Shown: piece by piece, positions 8,040 through 50,065 of the stretch
Numbering within the stretch: the stretch's first letter is position 1
Layout of the letters: each line of letters starts with the position of its first letter
Source of the DNA: Betaproteobacteria bacterium
Lineage (GTDB): Bacteria; Pseudomonadota; Gammaproteobacteria; Burkholderiales; SG8-41
DNA: 56,320 nucleotides
Reading direction: 5' to 3'
NCBI GenBank assembly: GCA_947467315.1
Contig: CANIID010000002.1
Coordinates: 1-56,320 of the forward strand
Notes under the pieces: generated by a model
Told to the model about the DNA's origin: nothing
Databases searched by the model: none
The model's input: the letters and a program-made list of their open reading frames with translations, nothing else
Program-made: the position numbers and the translations under genes

Positions 8040-8122
8040 CTAACCCCTTCCCGGTAAATTATTATTCTCAAAATTCACGGCGGAAACATTACTCCCGGCG
8101 CAATACATTGTCCATTCCGCCG

Positions 8123-8617: not shown

Positions 8618-8631
8618 AAGCTATCGCCCGG

Positions 8632-9129: not shown

Positions 9130-9152
9130 GTGCGCTCGACCGTTGGCGTTGC

Positions 9153-15381: not shown

Positions 15382-15497
15382 GAGAGGATTTCCTGGCAAT
15401 GCGTTGTTTGTGTACCGAGGATGCAATGATCGCGTGGTATCATTTTCGCATGAAAAGCAGGCCCATTCGGAGCGTGCGCTGTCGAGGAGAACTAACG

Positions 15498-17495: not shown

Positions 17496-17565
17496 TCCGT
17501 TGCAGCCTTGCCGCTATCTGACATGCAGCGGCGAATTAGAGTCCCTTGTTCAGAAATGGCAGCCG

Positions 17566-17973
17566 CTACTTCGCCCGCATTCGATTGTTCTTGGCGTTGT
17601 GCTCCAGCTCGCACAGGCCCAACGCTTCCATCAATGGCGGCACGTACACACCGAATCTGCCGCGCAGGCCTTTTTTCAATCCGTACCATCCGCCGACAGG
17701 GTTATTTGCAGAGCGGCCCCAAGCTTCGACGGTGCCGTCCTTGGCCGGTTTTTGTTCATCGGCGCCGCCGAGATCAACCCAGTCTTTAGCGGCAAGCAGC
17801 ATTTTGTGCAGATCGTCGATACAGCGCGCATCGTAGTGCAGCACGGTTTTACCTACGGTGCAGACGAGCACTTGCTTGCCGTCTTTTTCATCGACATGCA
17901 TGGTGTAGCCAGAAGTACCAGGCGGTGTCTTAAGTGCCCAGGGATTGTCTTTGGTGTGATCCAGCTTGGCCAT
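17566..17973 (-). CDS. Conserved hypothetical protein (135 aa)
   Basis: ATG at 17973 with a strong SD AAGGAGG 4 nt upstream; the track start at 17988 is a TTG inside the SD. Normal composition. Blocks PWALKTPPGTS, DEQKPAKDGTVEAWGR, NPVGGWYGLKKGLRGRFG and a C-terminal NNRMRAK look like a family I have seen annotated only as hypothetical. Confidence 0.7.
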   Translation of the reverse strand: MAKLDHTKDNPWALKTPPGTSGYTMHVDEKDGKQVLVCTVGKTVLHYDARCIDDLHKMLLAAKDWVDLGGADEQKPAKDGTVEAWGRSANNPVGGWYGLKKGLRGRFGVYVPPLMEALGLCELEHNAKNNRMRAK

Positions 17974-18254
17974 GCGGCCTCCTTTCAAGATTATGTGGGA
18001 TATGTCACGCTTACCTTATATCAGCGCGGCGAACACAAGGACGCTTACAGGGTTAGTAAGCCGAGATGCCGCTTAGTTCAAATGGGTGCGTCGGTCAAAG
18101 CGGTACTACGGCAACGCCCTATCCAAGCTACTCCATTGGATCGACCGATAGCGGTCAGCCGACAACATCGACTCAGGTCGGTCGCTTATAGTCACTCTTT
18201 CCGACCGCAGCCGGACAACGCGTGCCAGATCAACTCATACCGACTCTTCCGCAC

Positions 18255-19211
18255 CTAATCCGCCCGCAACCCCGTCGCCTTGACGATTTTGGAAAACCGC
18301 GCCATCTGCGTTCGAATATAAGCGTCCAGCTCCTGCGGCGTGCTGCCCACCAGCTCCAGGCCTTGTGCGGCGGCCTGGTCCCGATACTCCGGGTTCTTGG
18401 GCATTTTGGCGATTTCCGTACTCAACCGCTGCAATAGGGCCTGCGGCGTCTGCGCTGGTGCAAGCACGCCGTGCCAGGTGCCGATGTCGTAGCCCGGCAG
18501 TGTCTCGGCCAGCGTGGGCACTGCGGGCAAACGCGCGATGCGACGCAGCCCGCCAATGGCCAACACACGCACGCGGTTGCCGCTGATATGCGGCAGGATG
18601 GCCGGCAACGTGACAAAACTCATTTGCACTTCGCCCGACAATAGCGCGTTGAGATTTTCGGCGGTGCCTTTGTACGGCACGCGCACGATATTCACGCCCG
18701 CCATCAGCTTGAGCAACTCGGTGCCCAGATGCGCCGACGAGCCGTTGGTGCCTGATGCGTAGTTGAGCTTGCCGGGCTGCGCCTTGGCGAGATCGATCAA
18801 TTCCTTCACCGTTTTTACCGGTATCGAAGCATGCGTCATCAGCAGGCTGTGCGTCAGCGCCACCAAGCTTACTGCTGCAAAATCCTTGTTCGGGTCGAAC
18901 GGCAATTTCGCATGCAGGCTGGGTTGCACCGCGTGGCTGGTATTGGTCATCAGCAGCGTGTAGCCGTCGGGGCGCGCTTTGGCGGTCATTTCCGCGGCAA
19001 TAATGCCCCCACCACCGGGACGATTATCGATCACCACTGTCTGCCCCAGGCTATCGCCCAGTGCGCGCGCAACGCTGCGCGCCACCATGTCGGTGCTGCC
19101 GGATGCGGATGACACCACGATCATGCGGATAGGTTTATCGGGGTACTGCGCGGCGGCGTGACTGGCCGAGCACAGCACACCATAAAGGATCAGGATTAAA
19201 GCTCTACTCAT
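18255..19211 (-). CDS. Bug/TctC-family periplasmic solute-binding protein
   Basis: Trimmed to the ATG at 19211 (MSRALILILYGVLCSASHAAA). QYPDKPIRMIVVSSASGSTD, RVPYKGTAENLNA, STPQELDAYIRTQMARF. Confidence 0.85.
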   Translation of the reverse strand: MSRALILILYGVLCSASHAAAQYPDKPIRMIVVSSASGSTDMVARSVARALGDSLGQTVVIDNRPGGGGIIAAEMTAKARPDGYTLLMTNTSHAVQPSLHAKLPFDPNKDFAAVSLVALTHSLLMTHASIPVKTVKELIDLAKAQPGKLNYASGTNGSSAHLGTELLKLMAGVNIVRVPYKGTAENLNALLSGEVQMSFVTLPAILPHISGNRVRVLAIGGLRRIARLPAVPTLAETLPGYDIGTWHGVLAPAQTPQALLQRLSTEIAKMPKNPEYRDQAAAQGLELVGSTPQELDAYIRTQMARFSKIVKATGLRAD

Positions 19212-19316
19212 AGCGACACAATTCCTTTGATTTTGAGCCCCATTGTAACGGCACGTTGCTGCTAGAATCAAAACTCAATTGCACATTCACTTTCAACTTT
19301 TTCACTCACAACCACC

Positions 19317-28732: not shown

Positions 28733-29716
28733 TCAGTCGGCGCGGGCGCCTGACTCGCGTATCACGCGCTGCCAACGCAGAATTTCTTCTCGCGTGTAGC
28801 GACCCAGTTCCTGCGGTGTGCTGGTCAACGCTTCCGCGCCCTGCGCGGCGAGGCGATTGCGCACCTCGGCGGAATTGATGATGCGCACGATTTCGCCGTT
28901 CAGTCGCTGCACCAGTGCCGCAGGCGTTCCCGCAGGCGCGTAGGTCGCGAACCACGCATTGGCTTCATAGCCCGCCAAGCCAGAGCCGCCGGATTCGCTG
29001 ATCGTCGGCAACTCCGGCGCGGCGGCTGAACGGCGCGCCCCCGTCACCGCCAACCCGCGCAGTCTGCCGCTTTTCACCTGCGGCAGGATCGACAGCATGG
29101 TGGCGAACATCATGTCGGTTTCCGCGCTCATCACGCTGGTGATGGCCGGCGCCGCGCCCTTATACGGCACATGCAGAATTTTCGTGCCGGTCATGTGCGC
29201 AAACAAAATACCCGACAGATGCGTGGATGCGCCGCTGCCGGTTGAGGCAAACGACAGTTGCTTCTTTTTCGCCAATGCCACCAATGCGGAAACAGAATCC
29301 GCCGCCACCGACGGATGCAGCACCAGAATATTCGGTATCGTCGCAATCAACGTGATCGGCGCAAAATCCTTCACCGCGTCGTACGAGAGCTTGGGATACA
29401 AACTCGGATTGGTCACATGCGAGGTGAACGCCATCAGCAGGTTGTAACCATCGGGCGGGCTGCGCGCGACGATTTCACTCGCCACAATGCCGCCGCCGCC
29501 CGGACGATTGTCCACGATCACTTGCTGGCCCCATTGCTCGCCCAGCTTTTGCGCGATGGCGCGCGCAAGGCTGTCTGCACCGCCACCGACCGCGCCGCCC
29601 ACGACATAACGCACGGGGCGAATCGGATAGTTACCGGCGGGCGCGGGCTGCGCTTGCGCCTCGCCTGCGGCTATTATCAAAACCAGAGATATGTATAATT
29701 TATCGTTTAAAAACAT
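28733..29716 (-). CDS. Bug/TctC-family periplasmic solute-binding protein
   Basis: Trimmed to the ATG at 29716 (MFLNDKLYISLVLIIAAGEAQA). NYPIRPVRYVVGGAVGGGAD, HVPYKGAAPAITS, STPQELGRYTREEILRW. Confidence 0.85.
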   Translation of the reverse strand: MFLNDKLYISLVLIIAAGEAQAQPAPAGNYPIRPVRYVVGGAVGGGADSLARAIAQKLGEQWGQQVIVDNRPGGGGIVASEIVARSPPDGYNLLMAFTSHVTNPSLYPKLSYDAVKDFAPITLIATIPNILVLHPSVAADSVSALVALAKKKQLSFASTGSGASTHLSGILFAHMTGTKILHVPYKGAAPAITSVMSAETDMMFATMLSILPQVKSGRLRGLAVTGARRSAAAPELPTISESGGSGLAGYEANAWFATYAPAGTPAALVQRLNGEIVRIINSAEVRNRLAAQGAEALTSTPQELGRYTREEILRWQRVIRESGARAD

Positions 29717-29727
29717 ATACTTATAAT
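29706..29727 (+). repeat. AT-rich 22-nt motif, copy 6 (TTTAAAAACATATACTTATAAT)
   Basis: Same family. Antisense across the start codon of the Bug gene 28733-29716; the CAT at 29714-29716 is that gene's ATG. Confidence 0.6.
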
Positions 29728-29793
29728 ATACCCATACACCGATATGCAGCCCGGTTAATTGCACTGTGTTAGAAATGAACTGCCTCGTTGCAA

Positions 29794-29876
29794 CGAACGC
29801 TCCTTCCCCTTCAGGGGGAAGGTTGGGATGGGGGTGGGGTTACACCCGTCGCCCCATCCCCACCCTAACCCTCCCC
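29794..29876. repeat. G/C-rich REP-like inverted repeat (about 35-bp arms)
   Basis: tccccttcagggggaaggttgggatgggggtgggg pairs with ccccatccccaccctaaccctccccttgaagggga (about 5 mismatches, 12-nt loop). The left arm has four G-runs of at least 3 (G-quadruplex-type pattern). Confidence 0.65.
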
Positions 29877-29913
29877 TTGAAGGGGAGGGAAACAAATAAG
29901 TGACACAGTACAG

Positions 29914-30885
29914 TTAATTGTTCGGCTTTATCCCCGCTTGCCGGATCACCTTGGTCCACACGTCGATTTCAGTTTGCAAAAATTGCCGCAGCTCATCCGG
30001 CGTATTGCCGATCGGATCGCCACCCTGCCCCACCAATTGCTCCACCACCGCAGACGACTTCAACGCCTGCACCGCGCTGCGATGCAAAGTGTTGATGACA
30101 GACGCCGGTGTACGCGCCGGTGCGAACAAGGCATACCAGGTGCTTGCGCGAAAACCCGGCAGCGAGGCCGCTTCGGCCACCGTCGGAATATCCGGCGCGG
30201 CGCGCGTGCGCGCGGCGGTGGTCACGGCGAGCCCGCGCAACTGCCCTGAGCGCACATGCGGCAACGCGGGCAGCGTGCTGGTGCAGACCATTTGTATCTG
30301 CGCGCCGAGCAAATCAATCAACGCCTGACCCGCGCCCTTATACGGGATGTGCAGCATTTTGATACCGGTGCGGTAGCTCAGCATCTCGTTCGCAAGATGC
30401 CCGCTGGTGCCCTGACCTGAAGAGCCATACGTCAAACTGTTCGGCTTGGCCTTCGCCATTGCAATTAATTCGGGCAGTGTTTTGGCGGGCAGTGAAGCCG
30501 GCACCACAATAATCAACGGCGTATCCACGGCGAGCGTAATCGGTGAAAAATCCTTCAGCGCATCGTACGGCGCTTTGGTCAGCAGCCCCGCGTTCACCGC
30601 CAGCGTGGTGGCCAGCATGCCCACCGTGTAACCGTCGGGCGCAGCACGCGCCACGATCTCGCTGCCCAGCACCGTGCCGCCGCCCGGTCGCGTATCGATC
30701 ACGATGGATTGCCCCAGTGTCTCCGTCATTTTCGCGCCCATCAGACGCCCGATGATGTCCGCCGCGCCGCCGGCGGAGAACGGCACGATCATGCGGATCG
30801 AGCGCGCGGGGTAGCTATCGGCGGCGTGTGCCGAGGCACACGCGCAGGCCGCCACCCATAGTGTGAAGCGTGATGTGTGTTTCAT
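29914..30885 (-). CDS. Bug/TctC-family periplasmic solute-binding protein
   Basis: Trimmed to the ATG at 30885 (MKHTSRFTLWVAACACASAHA). SYPARSIRMIVPFSAGGAAD, HIPYKGAGQALID, NTPDELRQFLQTEIDVW. Confidence 0.85.
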   Translation of the reverse strand: MKHTSRFTLWVAACACASAHAADSYPARSIRMIVPFSAGGAADIIGRLMGAKMTETLGQSIVIDTRPGGGTVLGSEIVARAAPDGYTVGMLATTLAVNAGLLTKAPYDALKDFSPITLAVDTPLIIVVPASLPAKTLPELIAMAKAKPNSLTYGSSGQGTSGHLANEMLSYRTGIKMLHIPYKGAGQALIDLLGAQIQMVCTSTLPALPHVRSGQLRGLAVTTAARTRAAPDIPTVAEAASLPGFRASTWYALFAPARTPASVINTLHRSAVQALKSSAVVEQLVGQGGDPIGNTPDELRQFLQTEIDVWTKVIRQAGIKPNN

Positions 30886-31006
30886 TTTGGCTTTGCGTGA
30901 CGTCTGTTTTCCAATCGGGGCGTTCTCGTGCATGGCACACGGGAAACGAATGTTATTCTACCGTTTTGGCTCCCCCTACAAATCTGTCGCGCAACACCGG
31001 ACCATC

Positions 31007-32023
31007 ATGACCGCGAAACCCCAAAGGCACTTTCCCCTCTATGCCGTCGCAGCCGTCGCAGCGATCGCATCACCGTTGCAAGCGCAAACCCGCACGGACA
31101 AGCCGCCCGCGTCTTCTCTCACGCCGCCGCTCACGCAACCCATCCGCTTTGTAGTGCCCAACGCACCCGGCGGCCCCACGGATACCGTGGCGCGCATCGT
31201 CGGGCAAAAACTGGCCGAACGCGTGGGCGTGCCGGTGGTGATCGACAATCGTGGCGGCGCCACCGGCACCGTCGGCGGCGACATCGTGGCGAAATCCGCG
31301 CCGGACGGACGCACGCTGTTGCTGTCCAGCAGCAGCGCGTTTGTCTCGACGCCGATTCTGATGCCCAACGCACCCTACGATGGTCGGCGTGACTTTGCGC
31401 ATGTCACCGCGATTTTATCCGTGCCGTATTTGTTATTCGTGAATCCCACACTGGGCGCCAAATCCGTCACCGACCTCATCGCGCAAGCGAAAGCAAAACC
31501 CGGCGTGCTGAACTTCGGCTCGTCGGGCGCGGGCAGCACGTCTCATTTGACCGCCACGTTGTTCACCACCATGGCCGGCATCACCGTTACGCATGTGCCG
31601 TATAAAGGCAGCGCGCCCGCAGGGATTGACCTCATCGCGGGTCAACTGCAATTTATTTTCGAGGCCACGGCGGGTGGCATGCCGTTGTTGAAAAGCGGCC
31701 GCTTGCGCGCGCTGGGTATTTCATCCGCCAAGCGGCTGGGGCTACTGCCCGATCTGCCGACCATCGCCGAGGCCGGATTGCCGAACTATGAATCCAGCGT
31801 CACGCACGGCGTATGCGTCACCGCCAAAACGCCGCCTGCGCTGGTCACACGGCTGAATCGCGAACTGGTGGCATCCATCAACAGCCCCGACATACGCGAG
31901 CGCCTGACGGGCATCGGCGCGGAAGTCATCGCGAATTCGCCAGAGGAATTTCAGGCGGCCACGCGCTTGGAAATGAAGCGGTGGGAGAAGGTGGTGCGGG
32001 ATTTTGCGGCTAAGGGTGGATGA
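31007..32023 (+). CDS. Bug/TctC-family periplasmic solute-binding protein
   Basis: Trimmed to the ATG at 31007 (MTAKPQRHFPLYAVAAVAAIASPLQA). QPIRFVVPNAPGGPTD, HVPYKGSAPAGID, NSPEEFQAATRLEMKRW. The start is uncertain, with alternative ATGs at 30950 and 30932. Confidence 0.8.
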   Translation: MTAKPQRHFPLYAVAAVAAIASPLQAQTRTDKPPASSLTPPLTQPIRFVVPNAPGGPTDTVARIVGQKLAERVGVPVVIDNRGGATGTVGGDIVAKSAPDGRTLLLSSSSAFVSTPILMPNAPYDGRRDFAHVTAILSVPYLLFVNPTLGAKSVTDLIAQAKAKPGVLNFGSSGAGSTSHLTATLFTTMAGITVTHVPYKGSAPAGIDLIAGQLQFIFEATAGGMPLLKSGRLRALGISSAKRLGLLPDLPTIAEAGLPNYESSVTHGVCVTAKTPPALVTRLNRELVASINSPDIRERLTGIGAEVIANSPEEFQAATRLEMKRWEKVVRDFAAKGG

Positions 32024-32082
32024 CCCTCTCCCCTACCCCTCTCCCGCAAGCGGGAGAGGGTGGCCGTGAGGCCGGGAGAGGG
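32024..32082. repeat. REP-like nested palindrome
   Basis: ccctctcccctaCCCCTCTCCCGCaaGCGGGAGAGGGtggccgtgaggccgggagagggc: an inner 11-bp palindrome plus outer ccctctcc/ggagaggg arms. Lies between convergent genes. Confidence 0.55.
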
Positions 32083-32106: not shown

Positions 32107-33738
32107 TCACTGCCGCACCCCACTCTCCGTCAACACAATCTCCTTAGTCACCGAGCGCGTATGCGCCGACACCGGCACAAACACCGAATGTGACCCCGGC
32201 CCACCGGCGACGATGATACTGATGTCGTCCGCCTTCTCGGAAATCGGCACCATCGTCTCCGGCCCGATCTCGCCCAGCTCCGCGCGCCGGCCCGTGGCCA
32301 TGCGCTCGAACTCGCTGCCTTTAGAACGATCCGCGCGTATTTTTGACTGCTCCCATAGACGGCGCTTTACCTCCGCCTTGCTCCAACCCTCACGGTGAAA
32401 CAGCGCCGCGTGCTGCGGTGACAACAACACAAACGGCGCGCCGCCGTAGATGTAGTCGCTGCTCGCCGGATACTGCATGGTGTCGGCAATCATCGCGATT
32501 ACTTCTTCGCCGCGTTTCGCGGTCATGTTCATGCTCCACGTGCCGAGCGCGCCGACCACCGTGACGGTGTTCGCATCACGCGCAAAACCGCGCTCCACAT
32601 GCAGCGGCTCCCACGGATTCGCATCCTCGTTTTCCGCGCAGCAGAAGGTGTATTTCGCCGGCTGGCCCTGCGTGGCTTTGTCCATCTCGCCCGGCCATGC
32701 GCCCCCAATGTTGAGCAGCATCAGCCGCAGCGCGCGTCCCAGCGTCGCGTTCGCCCACGTGCCCGGCCCCAGACAACCGGCGCCACTATTCACCTCCAGC
32801 CACTTCGCAATCGGCCCATTGACGATCAGCCACACCGCCGCCGGATTGGTGGTGGACTGTATCGCCTGCAAATGAAATTGCGATTTGCCCACCGCCTCTG
32901 CCGCCGCAATCAGCACCGGCATATATTCGGGATAACAGCCCGCCATCACGCCGGCTATCGCGATGTATTCCACCGTAGCCGCGCCCATGCCCGGCGCAAT
33001 AGTCGCCACCACGTCATGCGGTGCGCGGTTCGTGTGACGCAACATGCGCGCCACGGCTTCCTGCGTCGGCGGCGCGATAATCAAACCATCGCCCCAGCGC
33101 CGCTGCATGTAAAACTTGTTGAGTTCGCCCAGATCAGCCGGCGCCTCGATCAGCTTCGCGCGCGGCGCCGTTGCGGCCACTGCCGCCGTGGCGGAACCGG
33201 CCGGCGCGGCCTCGCACAACAGCCGCGCGATGTCGTCCACGCACTTCGCGGCTATCTCCTTCAACTCCGCGCGCGAGCGCGTGCCAAACGGATGCGGTAT
33301 CAGTGCCATCGGCAAATCCGGCGAACCCAAAGCCTTTTGTTGCGCGCGGCCCAAACCCACGAAACTCTGCGACACCACCGTCAGCGCCGCCTTACCGCGC
33401 TTACCCGCTTCTACGCTGTCGTGGATACTCCACGACGTGCAAGAGCCTCAGTCACCCGAGCCGGTAATAATCGCGTCCGTCTGCGCCACCAGCTCATTCA
33501 TCGCTGCTTCGGACAAGCCCTGCGACGCGCTGCGCTTGCGCTGCTTGATCACCGCTTTCACGCCATGCTTTTCGATCAGCAACTGTGACAGGTCTTCAAC
33601 CAGATAATTGAAATTCGGCTTGGAGTTGTCGATGAAGCCAATGGTTTTGCCGGCCAGGTTGTCGAGTGATTGGCGGGATTTTTGCGGTTGGGTGAGGCAG
33701 GGGGCTACGGGGTCGTAGACAAGCGTGCTGCTGGACAT
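32107..33738 (-). CDS. Candidate UGSC-family (seleno)protein fused to a large uncharacterised C-terminal domain; in-frame TGA at 33448-33450 read as Sec
   Basis: Track ORFs 33448-33780 and 32107-33378 are in the same frame, with no other stop between them. Across the TGA the peptide reads ...DAIITGSGD-U-GSCTSWSIHDSVEAGKRG.... The start is taken as the ATG at 33738 (SD AGGAG, 6-nt spacing). The 69 nt between the TGA and the next possible start keep a coding-like third-position GC bias. A SECIS-like hairpin follows the TGA. Confidence 0.55.
33410..33445 (-). promoter_or_regulatory. Putative bacterial SECIS hairpin
   Basis: On the minus strand, 11 nt after the UGA: GUCGUGG-AGUAU-CCACGAC, a 7-bp perfect stem with a 5-nt apical loop containing GU. 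It can be extended by GC/GC and further pairs after a small internal loop. Confidence 0.4.
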
Positions 33739-33797
33739 GAATACTCCTGAGACAAGGTGGTTGTTGGTGACGTGCCTCAAATTTTAGCCCGGAAACG

Positions 33798-34828: not shown

Positions 34829-35794
34829 CTAGTCAATGCGGGCGCCCGACAGCTTCACAATCTCTCGGTACTTTTCGTAATCTGACCTCAGCAACTTGGC
34901 GAATTCTTCGGGTGTCGAATACATCGGATCGAGCACTTGCGCGGAGAGCTTCGCGGCCACATCGGTATCCGCCACCGCTTTTTTCAGTTCGGCATTGAGT
35001 TTATCGACGATCGGCCTTGGCGTGCCGGCAGGCACGAACGCGCCGAACCATCCGACGAACTCAAATCCTTTGAGGGTTTCTGCAATCGCGGGTATCTCCG
35101 GAAACTGCGTGGTACGTTGCGGCGTCGACACCGCGAGCGGGCGCAGGCGGCCCGACTTGAGGTAAGGATAGACCTCGGCCACGGGCGTGAGTATCGAATG
35201 TATCTCGCCACCGATCATCGCCAGCACCGCCGGCGCGCCGCCCTTAAACGGCACATGCGTCATCTTCGCGCCGGCCACATTGGCAAACAGGCTCATCGAA
35301 AGATGCTGCGAAGCGCCAACGCCCGCCGAGCCATAGAGCATTTCACCGGGCCGCACTTTTGCCAGATTGATGAATTCCCGCGTGGTGCGCGCGGGCAACT
35401 GCGGATGCACCGCCAGCATGTTTATCAGCCGCGTCACCGGCGTGATGCCGATGAAATCCTTTATCGAGTCATACGGCAGATTCTGGTAGAGGTGCGCATT
35501 CGCGACCAGCGTCTGCGAATACACCATGATCGTATACCCATCAGGCGGGCACTTCGCCACGATGTCTGCGCCGATGGTGCCGCCCGCGCCGGCGCGGTTA
35601 TCAATGGGGAACTGCTGGTTAAGCTGCTCGCTCATTTTCTGAAACACAAAACGCGCGACGACATCCGTGGCGCCACCCGGCGGAAACACCACCACCACGC
35701 GTACCGGTTTCACCGGGTAGGGCTGCGCCCACGTTGCGCTATGCATGAACAGAATCATTCCGACAAATGCACCGAACCAACGAATCGCGTTCAT
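34829..35794 (-). CDS. Bug/TctC-family periplasmic solute-binding protein
   Basis: 321 aa. Signal peptide ...MHSATWA. QPYPVKPVRVVVVFPPGGATD, HVPFKGGAPAVLA, STPEEFAKLLRSDYEKY. Confidence 0.9.
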   Translation of the reverse strand: MNAIRWFGAFVGMILFMHSATWAQPYPVKPVRVVVVFPPGGATDVVARFVFQKMSEQLNQQFPIDNRAGAGGTIGADIVAKCPPDGYTIMVYSQTLVANAHLYQNLPYDSIKDFIGITPVTRLINMLAVHPQLPARTTREFINLAKVRPGEMLYGSAGVGASQHLSMSLFANVAGAKMTHVPFKGGAPAVLAMIGGEIHSILTPVAEVYPYLKSGRLRPLAVSTPQRTTQFPEIPAIAETLKGFEFVGWFGAFVPAGTPRPIVDKLNAELKKAVADTDVAAKLSAQVLDPMYSTPEEFAKLLRSDYEKYREIVKLSGARID

Positions 35795-35909
35795 GTCATT
35801 CCTCCTTACCTAAACGGTTACAGGAATTTCACGCCATGGGTCACGAAGCCGCACTGTAGTCCTGGCACGGCAAGGGGTCAATCAGGGGCAACCTCCCTAT
35901 GGAAGCGGC

Positions 35910-36875
35910 CTACTTCGCCATCCCCAAATCCACCAGCGCCGCGCGCAAGCGCTTGTCTTCCGCTTGCAAATATTTGCGGAACGCGGCGCTGTCGAGATAA
36001 TCCAGTTCGCTCTGAGTGGATTCAACGAACGCCTTCCACGTGGGTGTTACGACACTGGCGGCAATCACGCCGTCCCAATACGCCACCTGCGGTCGGGTCA
36101 AACCCTTCGGGCCGAAGAGGCCTGCCCAGTTTTGCAAGATGAGATCGACGCCTTGTTCCTTGAAGGTGGGCACGGATGCCAGGATGCCCGACAGGCGCTT
36201 GGGTGCGGAGACGGCCAGCATGGTGAGTTTGCCGGATTCGACGTGCGGCTGAATGTTGGATGCGACAGTGACGATAGCGTCGACGTGGCCGCCGATGCCC
36301 GCGGTCATCAGCTCACCGCCATTGAACGCGGTGATGCGCGCTTTTTTCGGCTCGCCGCCCGCCGCGCGCACCATCATCCCCGCCACGATATGCAGCGTGC
36401 CGCCCGCGCCGTTGATACCCATGCTGAAGGTGTAGGGGTCACGCTTGAGCCGCTCCATCAGATCGCGCCCGGATTTCACCGCGGATTCGGGGCGAACGGC
36501 TACGGCAAGATATTGTTTGCCGAGCAGCGCCAGCGGCGTGAAGTCGGTGTATTGATACGTGCTCAGCCCGTTGATGTAACTCGTCAAAAACGTGGGCGAC
36601 ACCACATACATGGTGTGCGCGTCGCCCGCGCGCGCTGCCAGCACGTCCAACGCCATTTGCCCGCCGGCGCTAGGCCGGTTGACGACGTTCACCGACATCG
36701 GCGTCAACTTGGCGTCCTGCCAGATTTTTTGCAGCATGCGCCCGGTACGATCCTGCGAACTGCCGGCGGATAGGCCGATCAGTATTTCCATGTTTTTTTC
36801 GGGCTTCCAGGCTTGGGCGTGCGCGCATGCACCCGTGAGTGCGAAAACACAGAAAATGATCCAGGTGATTTTCAT
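35910..36875 (-). CDS. Tripartite tricarboxylate transporter substrate-binding protein (divergent Bug/TctC member)
   Basis: 321 aa. Signal peptide MKITWIIFCVFALTGACAHA and the same overall length and layout, but with divergent motifs (WKPEKNMEILIGLSAGSSQD, AFNGGELMTA). Confidence 0.75.
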   Translation of the reverse strand: MKITWIIFCVFALTGACAHAQAWKPEKNMEILIGLSAGSSQDRTGRMLQKIWQDAKLTPMSVNVVNRPSAGGQMALDVLAARAGDAHTMYVVSPTFLTSYINGLSTYQYTDFTPLALLGKQYLAVAVRPESAVKSGRDLMERLKRDPYTFSMGINGAGGTLHIVAGMMVRAAGGEPKKARITAFNGGELMTAGIGGHVDAIVTVASNIQPHVESGKLTMLAVSAPKRLSGILASVPTFKEQGVDLILQNWAGLFGPKGLTRPQVAYWDGVIAASVVTPTWKAFVESTQSELDYLDSAAFRKYLQAEDKRLRAALVDLGMAK

Positions 36876-37010
36876 TATTCAAAGAGCTCCTTAATCCATT
36901 CGCGCAGACCGGGATGTGCCTCGTGCAGCGCTATCCGATCAGCATCTAACTAAGTATACTCAATGCGCGGCGGATCAAGACATCAAATTCATACCCCAAA
37001 GGAACACTCT

Positions 37011-37997
37011 GTGATTGGCTTACTGGCTCGTATCGCGGTTCACCTGCTGCCACTCGCGACCTTCGTTTGCGCTGGCACTCTGAATGCGCAGACCTTCCCA
37101 ACCAAGCCGTTACGCATAGTGGTTCCGTTTCCCCCAGGCGGCAGCGCGGACTTCTTTACCCGCGTCATTGCACAGAAATTGTCCGAGGGCTGGAGCCACT
37201 CCGTAGTTGTGGAGAACAGACCGGGCGCCACCACTGTGATCGGCACCCAATTCGTCGCGCGCGCGCCAGCGGATGGCTACACGCTGCTGGTGATGGCGAA
37301 TAGTTTCACCATCAACCCGAGCTTGCGTGCCAATCTGCCTTACGACATCACTAAGGATTTCGCCCCGGTCTCGCAGCTCGTGGTTTCGCCGAATGTGATC
37401 GTGACGCATCCTTCGGTTCCGGCAAAATCATTCGGCGAGTTGCTGGCGCTAGCACGCACCCAGCCGGGCAAATTGACCTACGCCGCGCTCGGACCCGGCG
37501 GGGCACAGCATGTCGTAGGCGAAATGATTAGGCTTGCGGCAAAAATCGATATGATCTACGTGCCTTACGCGGGCGGTGCGCCCGCAGTACTCGCTGCGGC
37601 CGGCGGTCACGTCAGCCTCGCCATCGCCAATATTTCAGAGGTCACTTCGCATATCGAGGCTCGAAAGCTGCGAGCTTTGGCCGTGACGTCGCGCGAACGT
37701 GACCCCACCTTGAAGATAGTACCTACTGTTGCTGAATCCGGCATCCGGGACTTTCGGAATTTCGAGGCCCTCGCCTGGTGGGGCATCGTTGCCCCGGCCG
37801 GCACCCCCGCAGATGCCATTGCAAAAATCAATATGGAAGTCGCGCGCGTACTGAAACTGCAGGACGTGCGCGCCAAGCTGACCGAGCAAAGCCTGTATCC
37901 CGTCGGCTCAACGCCAGCGCAATTTGACTCCCACATCCGTGCGGAGACGGCACGCTATGCAATGGTTGTCAAATCGGCGGGCATCAAGGTAGACTAA
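37011..37997 (+). CDS. Bug/TctC-family periplasmic solute-binding protein
   Basis: GTG at 37011 after AAAGGAA gives (M)IGLLARIAVHLLPLATFVCAGTLNA. TFPTKPLRIVVPFPPGGSAD, YVPYAGGAPAVLA, STPAQFDSHIRAETARY. An alternative ATG at 36963 has no SD. Confidence 0.8.
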   Translation: MIGLLARIAVHLLPLATFVCAGTLNAQTFPTKPLRIVVPFPPGGSADFFTRVIAQKLSEGWSHSVVVENRPGATTVIGTQFVARAPADGYTLLVMANSFTINPSLRANLPYDITKDFAPVSQLVVSPNVIVTHPSVPAKSFGELLALARTQPGKLTYAALGPGGAQHVVGEMIRLAAKIDMIYVPYAGGAPAVLAAAGGHVSLAIANISEVTSHIEARKLRALAVTSRERDPTLKIVPTVAESGIRDFRNFEALAWWGIVAPAGTPADAIAKINMEVARVLKLQDVRAKLTEQSLYPVGSTPAQFDSHIRAETARYAMVVKSAGIKVD

Positions 37998-38796: not shown

Positions 38797-39867
38797 CTAC
38801 TGCCGCCCGCCCTCCACCGCAAAACCCTCCGCGCGCCAGCGCAGCATACCGCCCGCGAGATTCGCCACGTCGGTAAAACCCGCGCGCTGCAAAATTACGC
38901 AGGCCTGCGCGGAGCGCGCACCCGAGCGGCACACCGCCACCACCGGGCGTTCGCGCGCCAGCTCGCCCGCGCGCGCGGTCAACTCACCCAGCGGGATCAG
39001 CGCCGCGCCCTGGATATGCCCCAGCGGACCGCTGAATTCCGTTGCCTCGCGCACATCAACAATCTGCACCTTGCCCGCGACCTCTTCCAGAGTATGCGGA
39101 TAAATCTCCCAGATGCCGGCGAAGGTGAAGGTCAGATGCGCCCATGCCGGCTCAGCCGCGTTCGCCGGCGCATCGGTGACCTGCCCGCATTTCAGATTGG
39201 CAGGCACCGCCACGTCGATTTGTTTGGGATGCGGCAAGCCCAGGTTGCTCATGTAGCCGGTGAAGTCCGCTTCGCCGATGCTGCTGCCGAGCCGGGGGTT
39301 GAAGCGCCGCTCTTCGTCCACGCTGGTAACCGACAGCCCGCGGTAATCGTGGCCGGGATACAGCAGACACGTGGGCGGCAGCGTAAATATCTGGCTGTGC
39401 ACGGAACGATACAGCGTGCGCGCGCTGCCCTGCTGAAAGTCGGTGCGCCCGCAGCCGCGGATCAGCAGCGCATCGCCGGTAAAGGCCATCGACTCGTCGT
39501 CGAGCACGTAGGTGAGACAACCGCTGGTGTGCCCCGGCGTCTCGCGCGCTTCAAGGTAGCGCGAACCAAATTCGATGCGCGTGCCGTGGATCAACGCAAG
39601 ATCGGCGCCCGCGGCGCCACTGACTCCGGAGATCGCGATGCGGCTACCCAGGCGCTGCTTGAGTAGCGATGCGCCGGTCACGTGATCGGCATGCACGTGG
39701 GTTTCGAGCGTGCAGATTAATTTAAGGCCCAATTCGGAGATCAAGGCCCGATCTCGGCGCGCCTGCTCGAACACCGGGTCGATCAGCACCGCTTCACAAG
39801 TGCGTTCATCGCCCAGCAGGTAGCTGTAGGTGGAGGACTGCGGATCGAATAGCTGGCGAAAAATCAT
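38797..39867 (-). CDS. Persulfide dioxygenase (ETHE1-like MBL fold) fused to a C-terminal rhodanese domain
   Basis: 356 aa. [56 protein letters not shown]. The C-terminal roughly 100 aa carry a rhodanese active-site loop [10 protein letters not shown]. Confidence 0.85.
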
Positions 39868-39977
39868 GGTGCGCGCTCCGTGACGGCAATCTGCATTATG
39901 GGCCGTCGGACGCGGAATTCAAGCTACCGACGGTTGACCATTCCCAGGCACGGGAATACATTGCCGGTCTGTGACTC

Positions 39978-40850
39978 GTGATCAGGGAGACTCAAATTTC
40001 CACTGTCCTCAAGCAGCAGCCCGGCATACTCAACACGCTCGACATCCGCCCGCTCACCGGCGGCATGGGCGCGGAAATCCACGGCGCCGATCTGTCACGG
40101 GAAATGGATGACGCTACCTTCGCCGCGATCAACCAGGTGTTGCTGGATCACGGCGTGATTTTTTTCCGTGGCCAGAGCATCACGCCGGCGCAGCAAATGG
40201 CGTTTGCAAAACATTGGGGCGAGATACATTTGCATCCGCACATGCGATGTTTGCCGGATCATCCGGGCATCATCGAGGTCGTCAAAAAGGAAACCGACAC
40301 CACGGTGTTCGGCGCGAACTGGCACACCGATCAGATGTTCACGCCCACGCCCGCGCGGGTGACCATGCTCTACGCCAAGCAGGTGCCGCCGGTCGGCGGC
40401 GACACGCTGTTCGCCAATTTGCATAGGGCTTACGATACGTTGTCGGACGGCATGAAGGCGATGATCGCCAACCTGCGCACGCTGAGCATCTACGACAAAA
40501 AGAAAAAACGCCCGGCCGCGATGACGCCGACCGCACCCGAGGAAGACCCGCTCCCCTACGAGCATCCGCTGGTCAGGCATCACCCTGAAACCGGACGCAA
40601 GGCGCTGTACCTGTGCCACATCGGCATCACCTATCAAATCGTCGGCATGACGCCGGACGAAAGCCGTCCGCTGCTGCTGTACCTGATGCAGCACGCAACC
40701 CAGCCGGAATTCACCTGCCGCTTCCGCTGGGATGTCGGTTCGATGGCGGTGTGGGACAACCGCCGCGCCCTGCACTATCCGGTCAATGACTACTACGGCC
40801 ACCGCCGCGTCATGCACCGCATCACGGTCAAGGGCGAATCCACGTTTTGA
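39978..40850 (+). CDS. TauD/TfdA family Fe(II)/2-oxoglutarate-dependent dioxygenase
   Basis: 290 aa, GTG start. LDIRPLTGGMGAEIHGADLS, WHTDQMF (the HxD facial triad), and VWDNRRALHYPVNDY...RVMHRITV. Confidence 0.85.
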   Translation: MIRETQISTVLKQQPGILNTLDIRPLTGGMGAEIHGADLSREMDDATFAAINQVLLDHGVIFFRGQSITPAQQMAFAKHWGEIHLHPHMRCLPDHPGIIEVVKKETDTTVFGANWHTDQMFTPTPARVTMLYAKQVPPVGGDTLFANLHRAYDTLSDGMKAMIANLRTLSIYDKKKKRPAAMTPTAPEEDPLPYEHPLVRHHPETGRKALYLCHIGITYQIVGMTPDESRPLLLYLMQHATQPEFTCRFRWDVGSMAVWDNRRALHYPVNDYYGHRRVMHRITVKGESTF

Positions 40851-40964
40851 TTTAACGGGACAGCCCAACACACATCGGGCTAGCCACATCGTGTCGTAAT
40901 ACCGCCGCGGAATACGTCGCGGGTGATGCGGAGTCGCGAGGCCTGCGTTATCCTCGGGCATCCC

Positions 40965-42206
40965 ATGAAGAAAATATTTTACGGCTGGAAAATTGTATTT
41001 GCCGGCGGCGCTCTGCAATTTTTGCAGGGCATGCTGCTGAATCAGGCGTTCGGCGTGTATGTCGCGGTGCTGGTTGAAGAGCGCGGCTGGAGCAAGACCT
41101 CCCTGTCGGCCGCTGCCGCGCTGAAATCAACCGAAGTGGCGTTGCTGGGCCCGGTGCTCGGCTGGATGGTGGATCGCTTCGGCTCGCAGGGCATGGTGCG
41201 CGCGGGTGTGCTGTTGTTCGGCCTCGGGTTCATACTATTGAGTCAAATCGACACGCTCGCCGGCTTCTATGGCGCGTTTGTGATACTCGCGCTGGGCTCC
41301 AGCATGTTCAGCAACTTCCTGATGAGCGTGTCGATCATTCAATGGTTTGAAAAGCGCCGCACGCGCGCGCTGTCGGCGCTGCAGATGGGCGGCGCCATCG
41401 GCGGCCTGTTTGTATTCCTGGTGGCGCTATCGATGCAACACTTCGGCTGGCGGGTGACCGCCTTCGGTTCGGGCGTGATCGCCATCCTGGTCGGCTGGCC
41501 GCTCGCCTGCATGATTCGCAGCCGCCCGGAAGATCACGGTGAAACCATCGACGGTCTGCCCCCCGCCCCGAAAATCAGTGGGCAGCCCGAAGCGCCCGCC
41601 GCGCCGGCATTCACCGCGCGCCAGGCCTTGCGCACCAGCGCGTTCTGGCTGATTTCGCTGGGGCACGCCTGTTCTCTGCTGGTGGTGATTGCGATCAACG
41701 TGCATGCGATCACGCATATCAAAGTGGGGCTGGGCTATACGCTATCGCAGGCCACGCTTATTTTCACGCTAGTGACCGTAGGGCAATTTTTCGGCGTGAT
41801 ACTGGGATGGGGGCTTGGCGAAAAATTCGAGAAACGAAAGGTCGCCGCCGCCTGCATGCTGATGCACGCCACCGGCATGCTGATGCTCACCTACGCCATC
41901 GGCCCAGTCATGCTGGTGCTCGGCGTGCTGATTCACGGCACCGCATGGGGATTGCGCGGCCCGTTCATGCAGGCGATCCGCGCGGATTATTTTGGCCGGC
42001 GCTCGATCGGCGTGATCATGGGCCTGTCAGCAACCATCACCGTATTCGGCCACATCATCGGCCCCATATTGGCTGGCGCGTTTGCCGATTGGAACGGCAA
42101 CTACCGCATGGGTTTTACCGTGCTGGCGATGATGGCGGCCGCAGGCTCGATGTTCTTTTTGATGGCGCGCCCACCGAAAATGCCCGAAGCGGAGAAGGTA
42201 TTGTAA
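40965..42206 (+). CDS. MFS transporter
   Basis: Trimmed to the ATG at 40965 (MKKIFYGWKIVFAGG). About 12 hydrophobic segments with a central charged loop (RSRPEDHGETIDGLPPAPK). Confidence 0.85.
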   Translation: MKKIFYGWKIVFAGGALQFLQGMLLNQAFGVYVAVLVEERGWSKTSLSAAAALKSTEVALLGPVLGWMVDRFGSQGMVRAGVLLFGLGFILLSQIDTLAGFYGAFVILALGSSMFSNFLMSVSIIQWFEKRRTRALSALQMGGAIGGLFVFLVALSMQHFGWRVTAFGSGVIAILVGWPLACMIRSRPEDHGETIDGLPPAPKISGQPEAPAAPAFTARQALRTSAFWLISLGHACSLLVVIAINVHAITHIKVGLGYTLSQATLIFTLVTVGQFFGVILGWGLGEKFEKRKVAAACMLMHATGMLMLTYAIGPVMLVLGVLIHGTAWGLRGPFMQAIRADYFGRRSIGVIMGLSATITVFGHIIGPILAGAFADWNGNYRMGFTVLAMMAAAGSMFFLMARPPKMPEAEKVL

Positions 42207-44868: not shown

Positions 44869-44944
44869 GTGAATAACGAATAGGACGTGCGACGTATACT
44901 ACACTAGCAAAATCACCAGGCATCCAGCGAATTTGGAGAGAACC

Positions 44945-45967
44945 ATGATTGATTTGCCACCACCGTTACCTGCACGCGTCACGCTGATTATGTTGATCGC
45001 GTTGACTGCATTCATTCTGTTGGCGGCAATTGCGTCCCCTACGACGGTCTTCGCGCAGAACAACGCTCCGGCGGCGTATCCGAACAAACCCATACGCATG
45101 TTAGTGCCGTTTGCCACCGGCGGTGGCGCCGATGTGGTGATGCGGCCCTTCGTACAACGGCTGACCGAGCGTCTGGGTCAATCCATCGTCTACGAAAATC
45201 GCGGCGGCGCGGGCGGCGTGCTGGCCGGCGAAACCGTGGCGCGCGCCGCGCCTGACGGGTACACCCTGCTGGCGGGCGCGGTTTCCGTGATGACGGTCAC
45301 CGGAAATCTGATGAAGATTCCGTTTGATCCCGCCACGGATTTCGCGCCGATCACCAAGGTCGCGGATGTCACGAGCCTGCTGGGCGCTCGCCCCGGTCTC
45401 GCGCCGCGCACGCTGAAGGAAATGGTTGAATACGCGAAGGCGTCGCCCGGCAAGCTCATCTGGGGTATTTCCGGCATCGGCTCGGCGGGCCATCTGGCGA
45501 TGGAGCGCTTTCGCATGGAACAAGGCATCGACGTCACGCAGGTCATCTACAAAGGTGCCGGGCCCGGCACGCTCGCCCTGCTGAGCAACGAAATCGACAT
45601 CATGTCGGCGAACCCCGGCGTGTTCATGCCGCACATCAAGGCCGGGCGCCTGCGCGCCGTCGCCGTGTCGAGCGCGCAGCGCATCGCGATTCTGCCGGAT
45701 CTGCCCACCTATGCCGAAATGGGATTTCAGGGTTACATCCACGGATCGTGGTACGGTTTGGTCGCACCCGCGCGCACGCCGCCGACCCTCATTAACCGTC
45801 TGCACGAGGAAAGTATCAAGGTGCTGAAGGAGCCTGACATCATTGCCGTGTTCGCACGCGACGGCGGCGTGCCCGTCGGCAATACGCCGCAGGCGTTTGC
45901 ACGCGAAATACGCGAAGAAATCGCCGCTTCGGCGAAAATTATCCGCGCAGCGAAAATCAAACTGTAG
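44945..45967 (+). CDS. Bug/TctC-family periplasmic solute-binding protein
   Basis: ATG at 44945 after SD GGAGAG. Long signal peptide ...AIASPTTVFA. AYPNKPIRMLVPFATGGGAD, VIYKGAGPGTLA, NTPQAFAREIREEIA. Confidence 0.85.
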   Translation: MIDLPPPLPARVTLIMLIALTAFILLAAIASPTTVFAQNNAPAAYPNKPIRMLVPFATGGGADVVMRPFVQRLTERLGQSIVYENRGGAGGVLAGETVARAAPDGYTLLAGAVSVMTVTGNLMKIPFDPATDFAPITKVADVTSLLGARPGLAPRTLKEMVEYAKASPGKLIWGISGIGSAGHLAMERFRMEQGIDVTQVIYKGAGPGTLALLSNEIDIMSANPGVFMPHIKAGRLRAVAVSSAQRIAILPDLPTYAEMGFQGYIHGSWYGLVAPARTPPTLINRLHEESIKVLKEPDIIAVFARDGGVPVGNTPQAFAREIREEIAASAKIIRAAKIKL

Positions 45968-46883: not shown

Positions 46884-47870
46884 TTACTTGACTTGAATCC
46901 CGACCTCTTTAATCAGCTTGGCCCAGCGCGTGATTTCGAACTCCAGATACTTGCCGAGCGCCTCGGGTGTGCCGCCGAGCGGCGTCACGCCCAGCGTCTG
47001 AAGCCGCTCCCGCACGTCCGGCATTTGCAGCATGCGCGTGATTTCGTTATTGAGCCGGTCCACGATCGCGCGCGGCGTGCGCGCCGGGGCAAACACGTTG
47101 TACCACGCGATCATCTCGTAGCCGGCCACACCCGATTCGCCGATGGTGGGTATGTCGGGCGCCACCTCCACCCGCTTTGCGCTGCTAACGCCCAGCGCGC
47201 GCAACTTGCCGCTGCGCGTATACGGCAGCGTGCCGGTGATCACGTTGAAAGTCCCTTGCACTTCGCCGCTCATCACGGAAGTCACCGCCGGCCCGCCGCC
47301 CTTGAACGGCACGTGCAGCATGTCGATGCCGGCCATGCTGCGAAACAATTCCATCGCCAAGTGCGACGAGGTGCCCGCGCCCGACGACGCGAAGATCACC
47401 TTGCCGGGTTGCGCCTTGGCCAAGCTGACCAGATCGCGCGCTGACTTTGCGGGCAACGACGGGTTCACCGCCAGCAGATAAGGCATCTGCGCCAGCAAAA
47501 TCACCGGTGCCAGATCCTTGACCGGATTAAACGGCAACTTATACAGCGACACATTCATCGCAACCCCGCCAGAGGTCGTCAGCAAGGTGTAGCCGTCCGG
47601 CGGCGCGCGCACCACCACGTCGATGCCGATGGTCGAACCGCCGCCGGGACGGTTGTCGATAATCACCGGCTGTCCCCAAACCTCGAACAATTTTTGCGAC
47701 AGCACGCGCCCCACCAGATCATTCGAACCGCCGGGCGTGAAGGGCACCACCAGCCGTATCGGTTTGCTCGGGTAATTGTCGCCGGCCGCGGCGGCGGCAG
47801 TAGTTGCGATGCCTGTTGTAACCGCCATCAGGCAGAGAATCTGCATTGATTTCCACATAAATCGTAACAT
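46884..47870 (-). CDS. Bug/TctC-family periplasmic solute-binding protein
   Basis: 328 aa. NYPSKPIRLVVPFTPGGSND, HVPFKGGGPAVTS, GTPEALGKYLEFEITRW. The start ATG at 47870 is embedded in AT-rich motif copy 8. Confidence 0.85.
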   Translation of the reverse strand: MLRFMWKSMQILCLMAVTTGIATTAAAAAGDNYPSKPIRLVVPFTPGGSNDLVGRVLSQKLFEVWGQPVIIDNRPGGGSTIGIDVVVRAPPDGYTLLTTSGGVAMNVSLYKLPFNPVKDLAPVILLAQMPYLLAVNPSLPAKSARDLVSLAKAQPGKVIFASSGAGTSSHLAMELFRSMAGIDMLHVPFKGGGPAVTSVMSGEVQGTFNVITGTLPYTRSGKLRALGVSSAKRVEVAPDIPTIGESGVAGYEMIAWYNVFAPARTPRAIVDRLNNEITRMLQMPDVRERLQTLGVTPLGGTPEALGKYLEFEITRWAKLIKEVGIQVK

Positions 47871-49102: not shown

Positions 49103-50065
49103 CTACTCCGCTTTGATGTTGCCGGCCTTGACCACCTTCGACCACATCGCAATCTCGCGCGCGATGCGTTGTGAAAAAGCGTCGGGCGTGGAGTGTGCGG
49201 CTTCCAGATCGTAGCTGCGCAAACGTTTCGTCACGTCGGGCTGCTGGAGTATGCGCGCGAGCTCCTGATTCAACAGCGCGATGATCGGCTTGGGGGTGTG
49301 CTGGGGCACGCCGAGGCCGTACCAGAACGTCGCCGCATAGCCTGGCGCAATTTCCGCCATGGTGGGTAGATCGGGCGCCTCCGGCGAACGTTGCTCGCCG
49401 CTGACTGCAAGCAAACGCAGCTTGCCCGCGCTGGCGTGCGGCAAAAGCCCGGCGCCCGGCGCAAGGTAAAACTGTATCTGTCCGCCGAGCAAATCCGCGA
49501 TGGCGGCGCCGATGCCTTTGTACGGCACGTGAACCAGGTCGGTGCTGGTCATCTGACGAAACAGCTCGGTCGCAAGATGCGTGGAGCTGCCGATGCCGCC
49601 GGAACCGTAGTTCAGGCTACCCGGTTTCGCGCGCGCCAGATCGACAAACTCCTTCAGCGTCGCGGCCTTCACCGACGGGTGTACGGCGAGGAACATGGGG
49701 CCGGCGGCGATCAAGCCGACGGGGGCTATGGCTTTGAGCGGATCGTACGGCAGTTTATACAGCGCCGCGCTGCCCGAATACGCCGACGACATCATGATGA
49801 TCGTGTAGCCGTCCGGATTGGCGCGCGCCGTGATCGCGACGCCAAGCGTGGTGGCCGCGCCGGGACGGTTATCGACGATAAACTGCTGGCCGAATTTGTC
49901 GGTAAAGCGTGTCGCGATCATGCGCGCGACCGTGTCCACGCTGCCGCCAGCCGCCAGAGGCACGATGATACGCACCGGCTTTTCGGGCCACTTTCCCAAT
50001 TGCGCATGGGCAAGCTGCGCCGCTGCGGTAAGTACCACGAGTAGCAATGCAACGCGTCTGTTCAA
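49103..50065 (-). CDS. Bug/TctC-family periplasmic solute-binding protein
   Basis: 320 aa. MNRRVALLLVVLTAAAQLAHA signal, WPEKPVRIIVPLAAGGSVD, HVPYKGIGAAIAD, STPDAFSQRIAREIAMW. Confidence 0.9.
   Translation of the reverse strand: MNRRVALLLVVLTAAAQLAHAQLGKWPEKPVRIIVPLAAGGSVDTVARMIATRFTDKFGQQFIVDNRPGAATTLGVAITARANPDGYTIIMMSSAYSGSAALYKLPYDPLKAIAPVGLIAAGPMFLAVHPSVKAATLKEFVDLARAKPGSLNYGSGGIGSSTHLATELFRQMTSTDLVHVPYKGIGAAIADLLGGQIQFYLAPGAGLLPHASAGKLRLLAVSGEQRSPEAPDLPTMAEIAPGYAATFWYGLGVPQHTPKPIIALLNQELARILQQPDVTKRLRSYDLEAAHSTPDAFSQRIAREIAMWSKVVKAGNIKAE

Follow-up and report, generated by a model that had tools for sequence, protein, structure and literature searches.

A selenoprotein gene of the UGSC family, probably decoded at an in-frame UGA and fused to a conserved, unnamed partner domain, in a Burkholderiales bacterium

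UGSC-containing proteins, so named by Zhang and Gladyshev, have been known since the Sargasso Sea and Global Ocean Sampling (GOS) surveys (2005-2008). The GOS paper counts them among the UxxC selenoproteins and among the most abundant selenoprotein families in its data, with 255 selenocysteine (Sec) and 21 cysteine (Cys) sequences (PMC2398784); a 2026 review still describes the family as functionally uncharacterised. A fusion of UGSC with a domain called 'Unknown_1', which carries conserved Cys and also occurs as a stand-alone protein, appears in Fig. S1A of the same paper (PMC2398784), so that the fused architecture itself had already been reported before this analysis. Here we describe a gene of this kind on the minus strand of a 56,320-nt stretch of DNA from a Betaproteobacteria bacterium of the order Burkholderiales (assembly GCA_947467315.1, contig CANIID010000002.1, positions 1 to 56,320); this whole stretch is called the window below. 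Judged from sequence and homologues, a TGA inside the gene is very probably the selenocysteine codon of one 543-residue selenoprotein, in which a UGSC domain is fused to a partner domain.

The features of the gene and its decoding site are the following:

32107-33738, minus strand: complete putative selenoprotein gene, 543 codons and a terminal TGA stop (32109-32107), with a single in-frame UGA (Sec) at codon 97
33744-33748, minus strand: Shine-Dalgarno-like AGGAG, read from the sequence, with a 5-nt spacer to ATG 33738
33448-33450, minus strand: UGA codon 97, read as selenocysteine, motif D-U-G-S-C (from the sequence and from Cys at this column in homologues)
33418-33436, minus strand: predicted SECIS-type hairpin GUCGUGG-AGUAU-CCACGAC, 7 bp, starting 11 nt past the UGA, apical loop with G and U (from folding and covariation)
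33214-33717, minus strand: UGSC domain, residues 8-175, predicted three-layer alpha/beta flavodoxin-like (PF24696; fold from the model of the homologue P0209)

The sequence, the list of open reading frames (ORFs) and the translation agree that the minus-strand frame from ATG 33738 to the stop at 32107 is interrupted solely by TGA 33450-33448. A preliminary description of this DNA had placed an ORF of 110 aa (33448-33780, minus strand), which terminates at this TGA, and an ORF of 423 aa (32107-33378, minus strand) in one frame with no other stop separating them, and the sequence and the ORF list confirmed it. Translation likewise confirmed its U-G-S-C read-through peptide, ...AIITGSGD-U-GSCTSWSIHDSVEAGKRGKAALTVVSQSF..., in which the TGA is residue 97 counted from ATG 33738 and stands in the context GSGD-U-GSCTSW. 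ATG 33738, with AGGAG upstream, is the likely true start, rather than TTG 33780; the N-terminus MSSSTLVYDPVAP lines up with the N-termini of two relatives, L001 and L002. As the gene also terminates at TGA, the standard code applies. Scanning the window for TGA codons that bridge two coding-like frames yielded, besides this site, a single other one, 54627 (minus strand), which lies opposite a real gene, has no motif and was discarded as an antisense artefact; the TGA-bridged configuration is therefore no common accident in the window. Between the TGA and GTG 33378 lie 23 codons with a third-position GC content (GC3) of 17/23 = 0.74, the flanking ORFs having 0.74 and 0.78, and no credible ribosome-binding site (RBS) or start could be read in these 69 nt; the preliminary description had been right on both counts.

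For the family searches, Sec was entered as Cys at the TGA position. The Pfam model PF24696 (UGSC) matched residues 8-175 at its positions 3-171 of 172, spanning the TGA, with 146.3 bits against a cut-off of 25 (E=1.3e-42), so that the gathering score was passed. The NCBIfam model NF041046 matched residues 30-174 at its positions 2-146 of 147 (E=8.2e-32). This search had been proposed in the preliminary description, and the names given there proved correct: NF041046 is literally named 'UGSC family (seleno)protein', and the metagenomic family mentioned is the UxxC family of the GOS paper (PMC2398784). By its sequence, the gene is a member of this already described selenoprotein family, and the family is not new.

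A library-wide homologue search with the C-terminal part as query returned three length classes: proteins of about 340-370 aa, which are the partner domain alone; proteins of about 410-460 aa that match from residue ~80-110 and are ORFs truncated just past the TGA; and full-length proteins of about 530-570 aa. In the alignment of 18 full-length proteins with the window protein, Cys stands at the TGA column in ten (GDCGSCTSW and close variants, with D/A-C-G-S-C in P0145, P0150, P0178, P0205, P0209, P0226, P0244, P0248, P0251 and P0252), and all 18 are colinear into the C-terminal domain. The comparison with Cys homologues suggested at the outset thus placed Cys exactly at the TGA, with the alignment continuing past it.

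These results bear on the possibility that the TGA is a true stop and that the locus holds two genes, one for a 96-aa fragment and one for a protein of 423-447 aa with its own start. Exactly those two ORFs are called in the public annotations of two relatives (a 96-aa UGSC fragment and an ORF of 425 or 431 aa), the splitting by gene callers that had been predicted; the closest database proteins are all truncations of 400-438 aa that start past the TGA and are named 'hypothetical protein', and UGSC and partner are genuinely separate genes in many genomes. However, split genes part only past the complete UGSC domain, at about residue 175, and in no case at the TGA, so that they give no support to the TGA as a stop; moreover, the Pfam domain is continuous over the TGA, the Cys homologues run on without a break, no RBS-preceded start codon follows in the next 69 nt, and a 96-aa fragment would finish mid-fold. 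A true stop is therefore very improbable.

A scan with the C-terminal domain alone, limited to one genome per species, returned 80 loci from Betaproteobacteria, Dehalococcoidia, Rokubacteria/Methylomirabilota, Binatia, Deltaproteobacteria, Acidobacteriota, Actinomycetota, Alpha- and Gammaproteobacteria, a cultured Robertmurraya (Bacillaceae) and Methanobacteria. When a home-made UGSC hidden Markov model (HMM) was run on six-frame translations of 83 related loci with TGA read as U, 95 UGSC domains were found, 92 of them with a residue at the Sec column. An in-frame TGA occupies this column in 88 of the 92, spread over Betaproteobacteria, Dehalococcoidia, Rokubacteria, Binatia, Acidobacteriota, Actinomycetota and one Bacillaceae isolate; the copies without TGA have Cys (L051, L058, L075) or, in two degenerate cases, Ser or Gly. 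Frame and TGA are the same as in the window in L001 (GCA_945878615.1, contig CAMDWR010000045.1), which is 99% identical, and the TGA is in frame in L001 and L002 (Burkholderiales metagenome-assembled genome) with synonymous differences around it.

That the TGA is a Cys codon, TGC or TGT, mutated in a pseudogene or misread in the assembly might be supposed from the existence of Cys forms, both in the three loci just named and among the full-length Cys proteins. It is extremely improbable: the 88 TGA-bearing copies come from independent assemblies, TGA is present in 120/120 metagenome loci (though the pattern used to retrieve them, given below, itself specifies TGA), both halves of the gene have high GC3 (0.74 and 0.78) and conserved residues, and the hairpin downstream covaries.

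In the selenocysteine insertion sequence (SECIS) of E. coli fdhF, the spacing from the UGA is 11 nt and the small apical loop contains G and U, which is the signature of SelB-dependent decoding. Covariation in the hairpin of the window was assessed in a gap-free alignment of 84 distinct Sec loci. Over the seven stem positions 87.6% of cells are paired, compared with 22-55% when the 3' arm is slid, so that pairing exceeds every slid control. Double-sided changes were found in six of the seven stem pairs; the top pair changes from G-C to C-G 16 times, Trp TGG becoming Cys TGC while the partner codon changes in step. Compensatory cells number 32, against 8.8 +/- 2.6 in shuffles, and none of 500 shuffles reached 32. 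Sequence and comparative evidence, rather than experiment, indicates that decoding of the UGA would be aided by this mRNA hairpin, a bacterial SECIS presumably read by SelB. The Rfam scan of the window returned no SECIS, tRNA-Sec or other RNA family.

Several observations weigh against selenocysteine at codon 97. The NF041046 score, 110.2 bits, misses the equivalog cut-off of 125 bits, and automatic naming would for this reason fail, though the protein is a clear homologue. The hairpin lies inside coding sequence, its stem encoding the conserved C-T-S-W-S-I/V-H-D, and part of its conservation is thus that of amino acids; conservation alone is therefore uninformative, and the compensatory changes are the meaningful part. 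Among the 48 Pfam-annotated ORFs of the window none is selA, selB or selD, ARAGORN finds no tRNA in the 56-kb window, and no tRNA-Sec was found in the 60 related loci scanned; Sec-decoding machinery in this genome is assumed. The missing machinery in the window would also suit a UGA that is read through without Sec, e.g., by a near-cognate Trp or Cys, in an organism whose Sec machinery has been lost. Such read-through is nevertheless improbable, given the conserved hairpin with its canonical 11-nt spacing and the G/U of its loop, a SelB-dependent signature, and given that the family is catalogued as selenoproteins in organisms with the Sec trait. The three alternative decodings are contradicted by the continuity of the domain, the conservation of the TGA across phyla and the covarying hairpin, and their joint likelihood is small, as far as it can be roughly put. 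The selenoprotein interpretation offered in the preliminary description is in this way supported by a TGA found in dozens of genomes from several phyla and by a covarying SECIS-type hairpin.

Other Sec-containing forms of UGSC were seen in the related loci. A second paralogue class has the motif G-A/G-U-GSCTPAV (L007 16253-16792; L014 13556-14092; L015 184-432; L042 11980-12516); each of these paralogues carries a fused partner domain of its own and a hairpin of its own, CCCGC...GCGGG, at equal distance from the UGA. Variants with an in-frame TGA and without the resolving Cys (GH-U-GSSAPW, GD-U-GTSAS) are present in L009 (20673-20999), L047 (5995-6507), L057 (9515-9889) and L033 (6350-6871). 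Sec stands here without its U-x-x-C partner, which argues that these variants, at least, can do without a selenenylsulfide to that Cys.

The remainder of the protein consists of two regions:

33154-33213, minus strand: Ala-rich variable linker, approximately residues 176-195, unaligned and length-variable; in the P0209 model the predicted local-distance score (pLDDT) of the corresponding stretch drops to 64
32110-33153, minus strand: partner domain, residues 196-543, with 4818 representative homologues and an AlphaFold2 (AF2) model

The C-terminal two thirds is a separate, unnamed domain outside the UGSC family proper, a point absent from the preliminary description. Searches of Pfam and NCBIfam gave no match to this domain, either with the window protein as query or with 65 diverse members (Pfam, E<=10), and a sequence-profile search of PDB found nothing. 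Its homologues form 4818 representative clusters at E<=1e-3, all named members being 'hypothetical protein'. The AF2 model built from a 65-sequence alignment has a pLDDT of 95.6 and a predicted TM-score (pTM) of 0.94, and Foldseek found no match to it in PDB at E<=1e-3, the best TM-score being 0.28. The top match was the fold of a class I fumarate hydratase subunit (TM 0.24-0.28, probability 0.47), which is not significant and was rejected. In window numbering, G218, G267, G308, R335, E369 and G512 are invariant, and D217 (WTDGLP), C268 (AVMAGC), N330, C366 (FC.AENE) and W376 nearly so. With hhalign the domain showed no relation to PrdB or to UGSC. The domain is probably the 'Unknown_1' of the GOS paper.

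The link between the two domains was examined from either side. On the side of the partner domain, the 84 loci considered contain 102 copies of it: 27 copies are fused in frame with UGSC, 41 have a UGSC gene immediately upstream on the same strand, 18 have one immediately downstream, and 11 have one farther off (about 540-1500 nt); no UGSC was found for the remaining five, several of which lie at contig ends. The reciprocal test used a DNA pattern that codes for D-U-G-x-C-T-x-W-x-(I/V)-H alone and thereby itself specifies TGA; it retrieved 120 metagenome loci, all 120 of which were matched by the UGSC HMM. The partner is fused in 33 of them, encoded immediately downstream in 48, immediately upstream in six, adjacent on the opposite strand in two and farther off in one. 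In the remaining 30 loci no partner was found; each of these has a flank shorter than 600 nt on one side or both, and wherever both flanks are long enough a partner is present. The partner domain thus adjoins UGSC or is fused with it in nearly every locus, and the link holds from either partner.

Since the fold was modelled on a full-length Cys homologue, P0209 (35% identical, ITGSGDCGSCTSW), not on the window protein itself, it is a prediction for the latter. The P0209 model has a pLDDT of 94.6 and a pTM of 0.92, with a low-confidence linker. Its PDB matches include lumazine synthase (TM 0.57 on target), the flavodoxin domain of flavodiiron proteins, PTS IIB and the FtsZ N-domain; none of the top 50 PDB matches is a thioredoxin-fold entry. 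The UGSC domain is accordingly predicted to be a flavodoxin-like/Rossmann-like three-layer alpha/beta structure, not thioredoxin-like as suggested in 2008. When the domain was searched against PDB by sequence, the sole match was a marginal one to a periplasmic-binding-protein lobe (E=0.006).

A distant relative of UGSC was indicated by hhalign, which aligned 83 UGSC domains with 21 GOS 'PrdB' (PF07355-type) sequences at 85.8% probability (E=5e-6) over 70 columns, placing Sec on Sec and aligning the 'LE..GIPTV' and 'HPxG' motifs; in the reversed control the probability was 0.1%. Against a common origin it counts that HMMER did not detect the likeness (5 bits; the Pfam model GRDB PF07355 had no match at E<=1) and that it is restricted to about 70 columns at 86% probability. 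There is moderate indication from these alignments that the Sec loop of UGSC may share a distant origin with GrdB/PrdB, without UGSC being a member of that family.

What the two domains might do together can be sketched from conserved residues and genomic context. Sec97 and Cys100 are flanked by invariant Asp96, Gly98, Trp103 and His106, and Asn38, Lys40 and Pro150 are invariant elsewhere in the domain. As a U-x-x-C pair at a strand-to-helix turn, Sec97 and Cys100 would cycle between selenol/thiol and selenenylsulfide states, with Cys100 as the presumed resolving thiol; they would act on a substrate site of the partner domain or supply it with reducing equivalents, and this site could have at its core the near-invariant Cys268 and Cys366 together with the invariant Arg335 and Glu369. 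By analogy with GrdB/PrdB in their complexes, the closest parallel, UGSC may serve as the nucleophile or the reductant. Fused homologues without U/C-x-x-C (P0123, P0131, P0214) retain Cys268 and Cys366, and for this reason the substrate site is probably in the partner domain. Because UGSC is tied to this domain and AF2 models a single confident two-domain assembly, the pair is most likely one enzyme. Genomic context, with carboxylate transporters, CoA-transferases, enoyl-CoA hydratases and MmgE/PrpD, suggests a small carboxylate or an acyl-CoA ester as the substrate.

The same four residues, Sec97, Cys100, Cys268 and Cys366, could instead bind a metal or Fe-S centre. Four conserved (seleno)thiols, two in each of two obligate partners, would suit such a centre, as would the context of carboxylate catabolism and the partner domain's weak top fold match, an Fe-S-dependent class I fumarate hydratase subunit. 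However, that match is not significant, P0123, P0131 and P0214 keep both partner cysteines without U/C-x-x-C, so that these work without the UGSC pair, and a helix N-terminus is where a redox U-x-x-C classically stands; such a centre is therefore unlikely. The selenenylsulfide cycle is kept here as the working proposal. Tentatively, and with considerable doubt, we propose that UGSC and its partner may constitute a previously unrecognised, self-contained selenoenzyme, either two-component or fused, in which a flavodoxin-like Sec domain with a loop distantly derived from that of GrdB/PrdB sits on a catalytic domain whose fold has no solved relative; it might perform a reductive or thiol/selenol-dependent step by which aerobic bacteria of soil and freshwater break down small carboxylates or acyl-CoA esters. 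Two results weigh against the mechanism sketched above: the analysis identified neither a cofactor nor a substrate or redox partner, the mechanism being inferred throughout, and no third conserved gene accompanies the UGSC-partner pair across the loci.

The neighbours that do recur around the pair are TctC (25 loci), CoA-transferase III (15 loci), luciferase-like monooxygenase (15 loci), short-chain dehydrogenase/reductase (13 loci), enoyl-CoA hydratase (13 loci), MmgE/PrpD (10 loci), acyl-CoA synthetase (7 loci) and FMN-dependent dehydrogenase (7 loci). TctC was considered as a third conserved partner gene on account of its 25 loci but was rejected, as it is abundant across the window itself (17 copies). 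These 17 genes, which encode solute-binding proteins of TctC/Bug-family tripartite tricarboxylate transporters, are interleaved with catabolic enzymes over 56 kb (446-56318; examples are 446-1408, 2654-3631, 15372-16457, 18255-19271, 28733-32023, 34829-37997, 44933-45967, 46884-47870, 49103-50065 and 51177-52328) and represent an extreme local expansion of 'orphan' binding proteins. In the cultured Bacillaceae isolate Robertmurraya sp. 2P01SA (NZ_CP154845.1; L027, 5091-17842), the fused Sec form, located near 3.22 Mb of that sequence, lies in a co-directional cluster in the order PrpR-type sigma-54 activator, enoyl-CoA hydratase, MmgE/PrpD, UGSC fusion, tripartite ATP-independent periplasmic (TRAP) transporter subunit DctM, DUF6282, NAD-binding protein, Ldh_2, thioesterase and major facilitator superfamily (MFS) transporter.

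The promoter and terminator scan revealed nothing convincing directly upstream of the UGSC gene in the window, and the gene may be co-transcribed with an aldo-keto reductase gene 57 nt upstream. In L001 these two genes, 57 nt apart in the window, are separated by a three-gene insertion (7555-9551) that encodes a Gp49-like toxin, a helix-turn-helix (HTH) antitoxin and a 446-aa ORF without Pfam match. On its other side the UGSC gene is convergent with a TctC gene ending at 32023, and the 83-nt gap between them contains a GC-rich inverted repeat (ccctctcccg cttg cgggagaggg, 32037-32060) without a T-run, for which the terminator scan made no call. The genes at 38797-42206 encode, in this order, a metallo-beta-lactamase-rhodanese fusion (persulfide-dioxygenase-like), a TauD-family dioxygenase and an MFS transporter; the block is kept in L001 and suggests organosulfur metabolism near the selenoprotein gene. 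Elsewhere in the window, tandem DUF6644 genes were found at 8123-9129, and coding-like ORFs without Pfam match, one of them of 510 aa, at 12799-14331, 5678-6523 and 7209-8039 (all minus strand) and at 17500-18258 (plus strand).

In terms of annotation, the gene is a textbook selenoprotein gene split by gene callers, which the NCBIfam equivalog would miss. Beyond the known family and fusion, our analysis adds the two-way linkage to an unnamed domain, the confident fold of that domain with no solved relative, a non-thioredoxin fold for UGSC and a possible link to GrdB/PrdB; these four points are modest, testable leads, not a discovery. The search for the function of UGSC is narrowed to a constant partner of ~350 aa, its unmatched confident fold, and clusters for carboxylate/CoA-ester catabolism, and the cultured Robertmurraya isolate is a possible, tractable experimental system for the family. 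If true, the selenoenzyme reading would tell what one of the most abundant selenoprotein families of the environment does.

Compared with the UGSC family as modelled in PF24696 and NF041046, the window protein has the same domain, the D-U-G-S-C-T-S-W motif, the in-frame TGA and the rare Cys homologues; the models comprise 147-172 positions, whereas the window protein is three times longer through its fused second domain. It resembles the UGSC/Unknown_1 fusion, as reported in the GOS paper, in having UGSC followed by a conserved domain with conserved Cys (here Cys268 and Cys366) that also occurs stand-alone, and the partner domain is found here in many soil, groundwater and freshwater lineages, in 4818 clusters. 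Like the SECIS of E. coli fdhF, the hairpin of the window lies within the coding sequence directly 3' of the UGA, with an 11-nt spacer and a G/U loop; it differs from fdhF-type elements in that its sequence is family-specific and has no Rfam match, its reading by SelB being predicted. Finally, GrdB and PrdB (PF07355), the Sec-bearing B subunits of the glycine/sarcosine/betaine and D-proline reductases, have in common with UGSC a strand, a U-x-x-C at the start of a helix, an 'LE..G(I/V)PTV' strand and an 'HP(F/L)G' loop; in contrast to them, the UGSC locus has no pyruvoyl-type GrdE/PrdA partner, and its partner domain is unrelated to PrdB.

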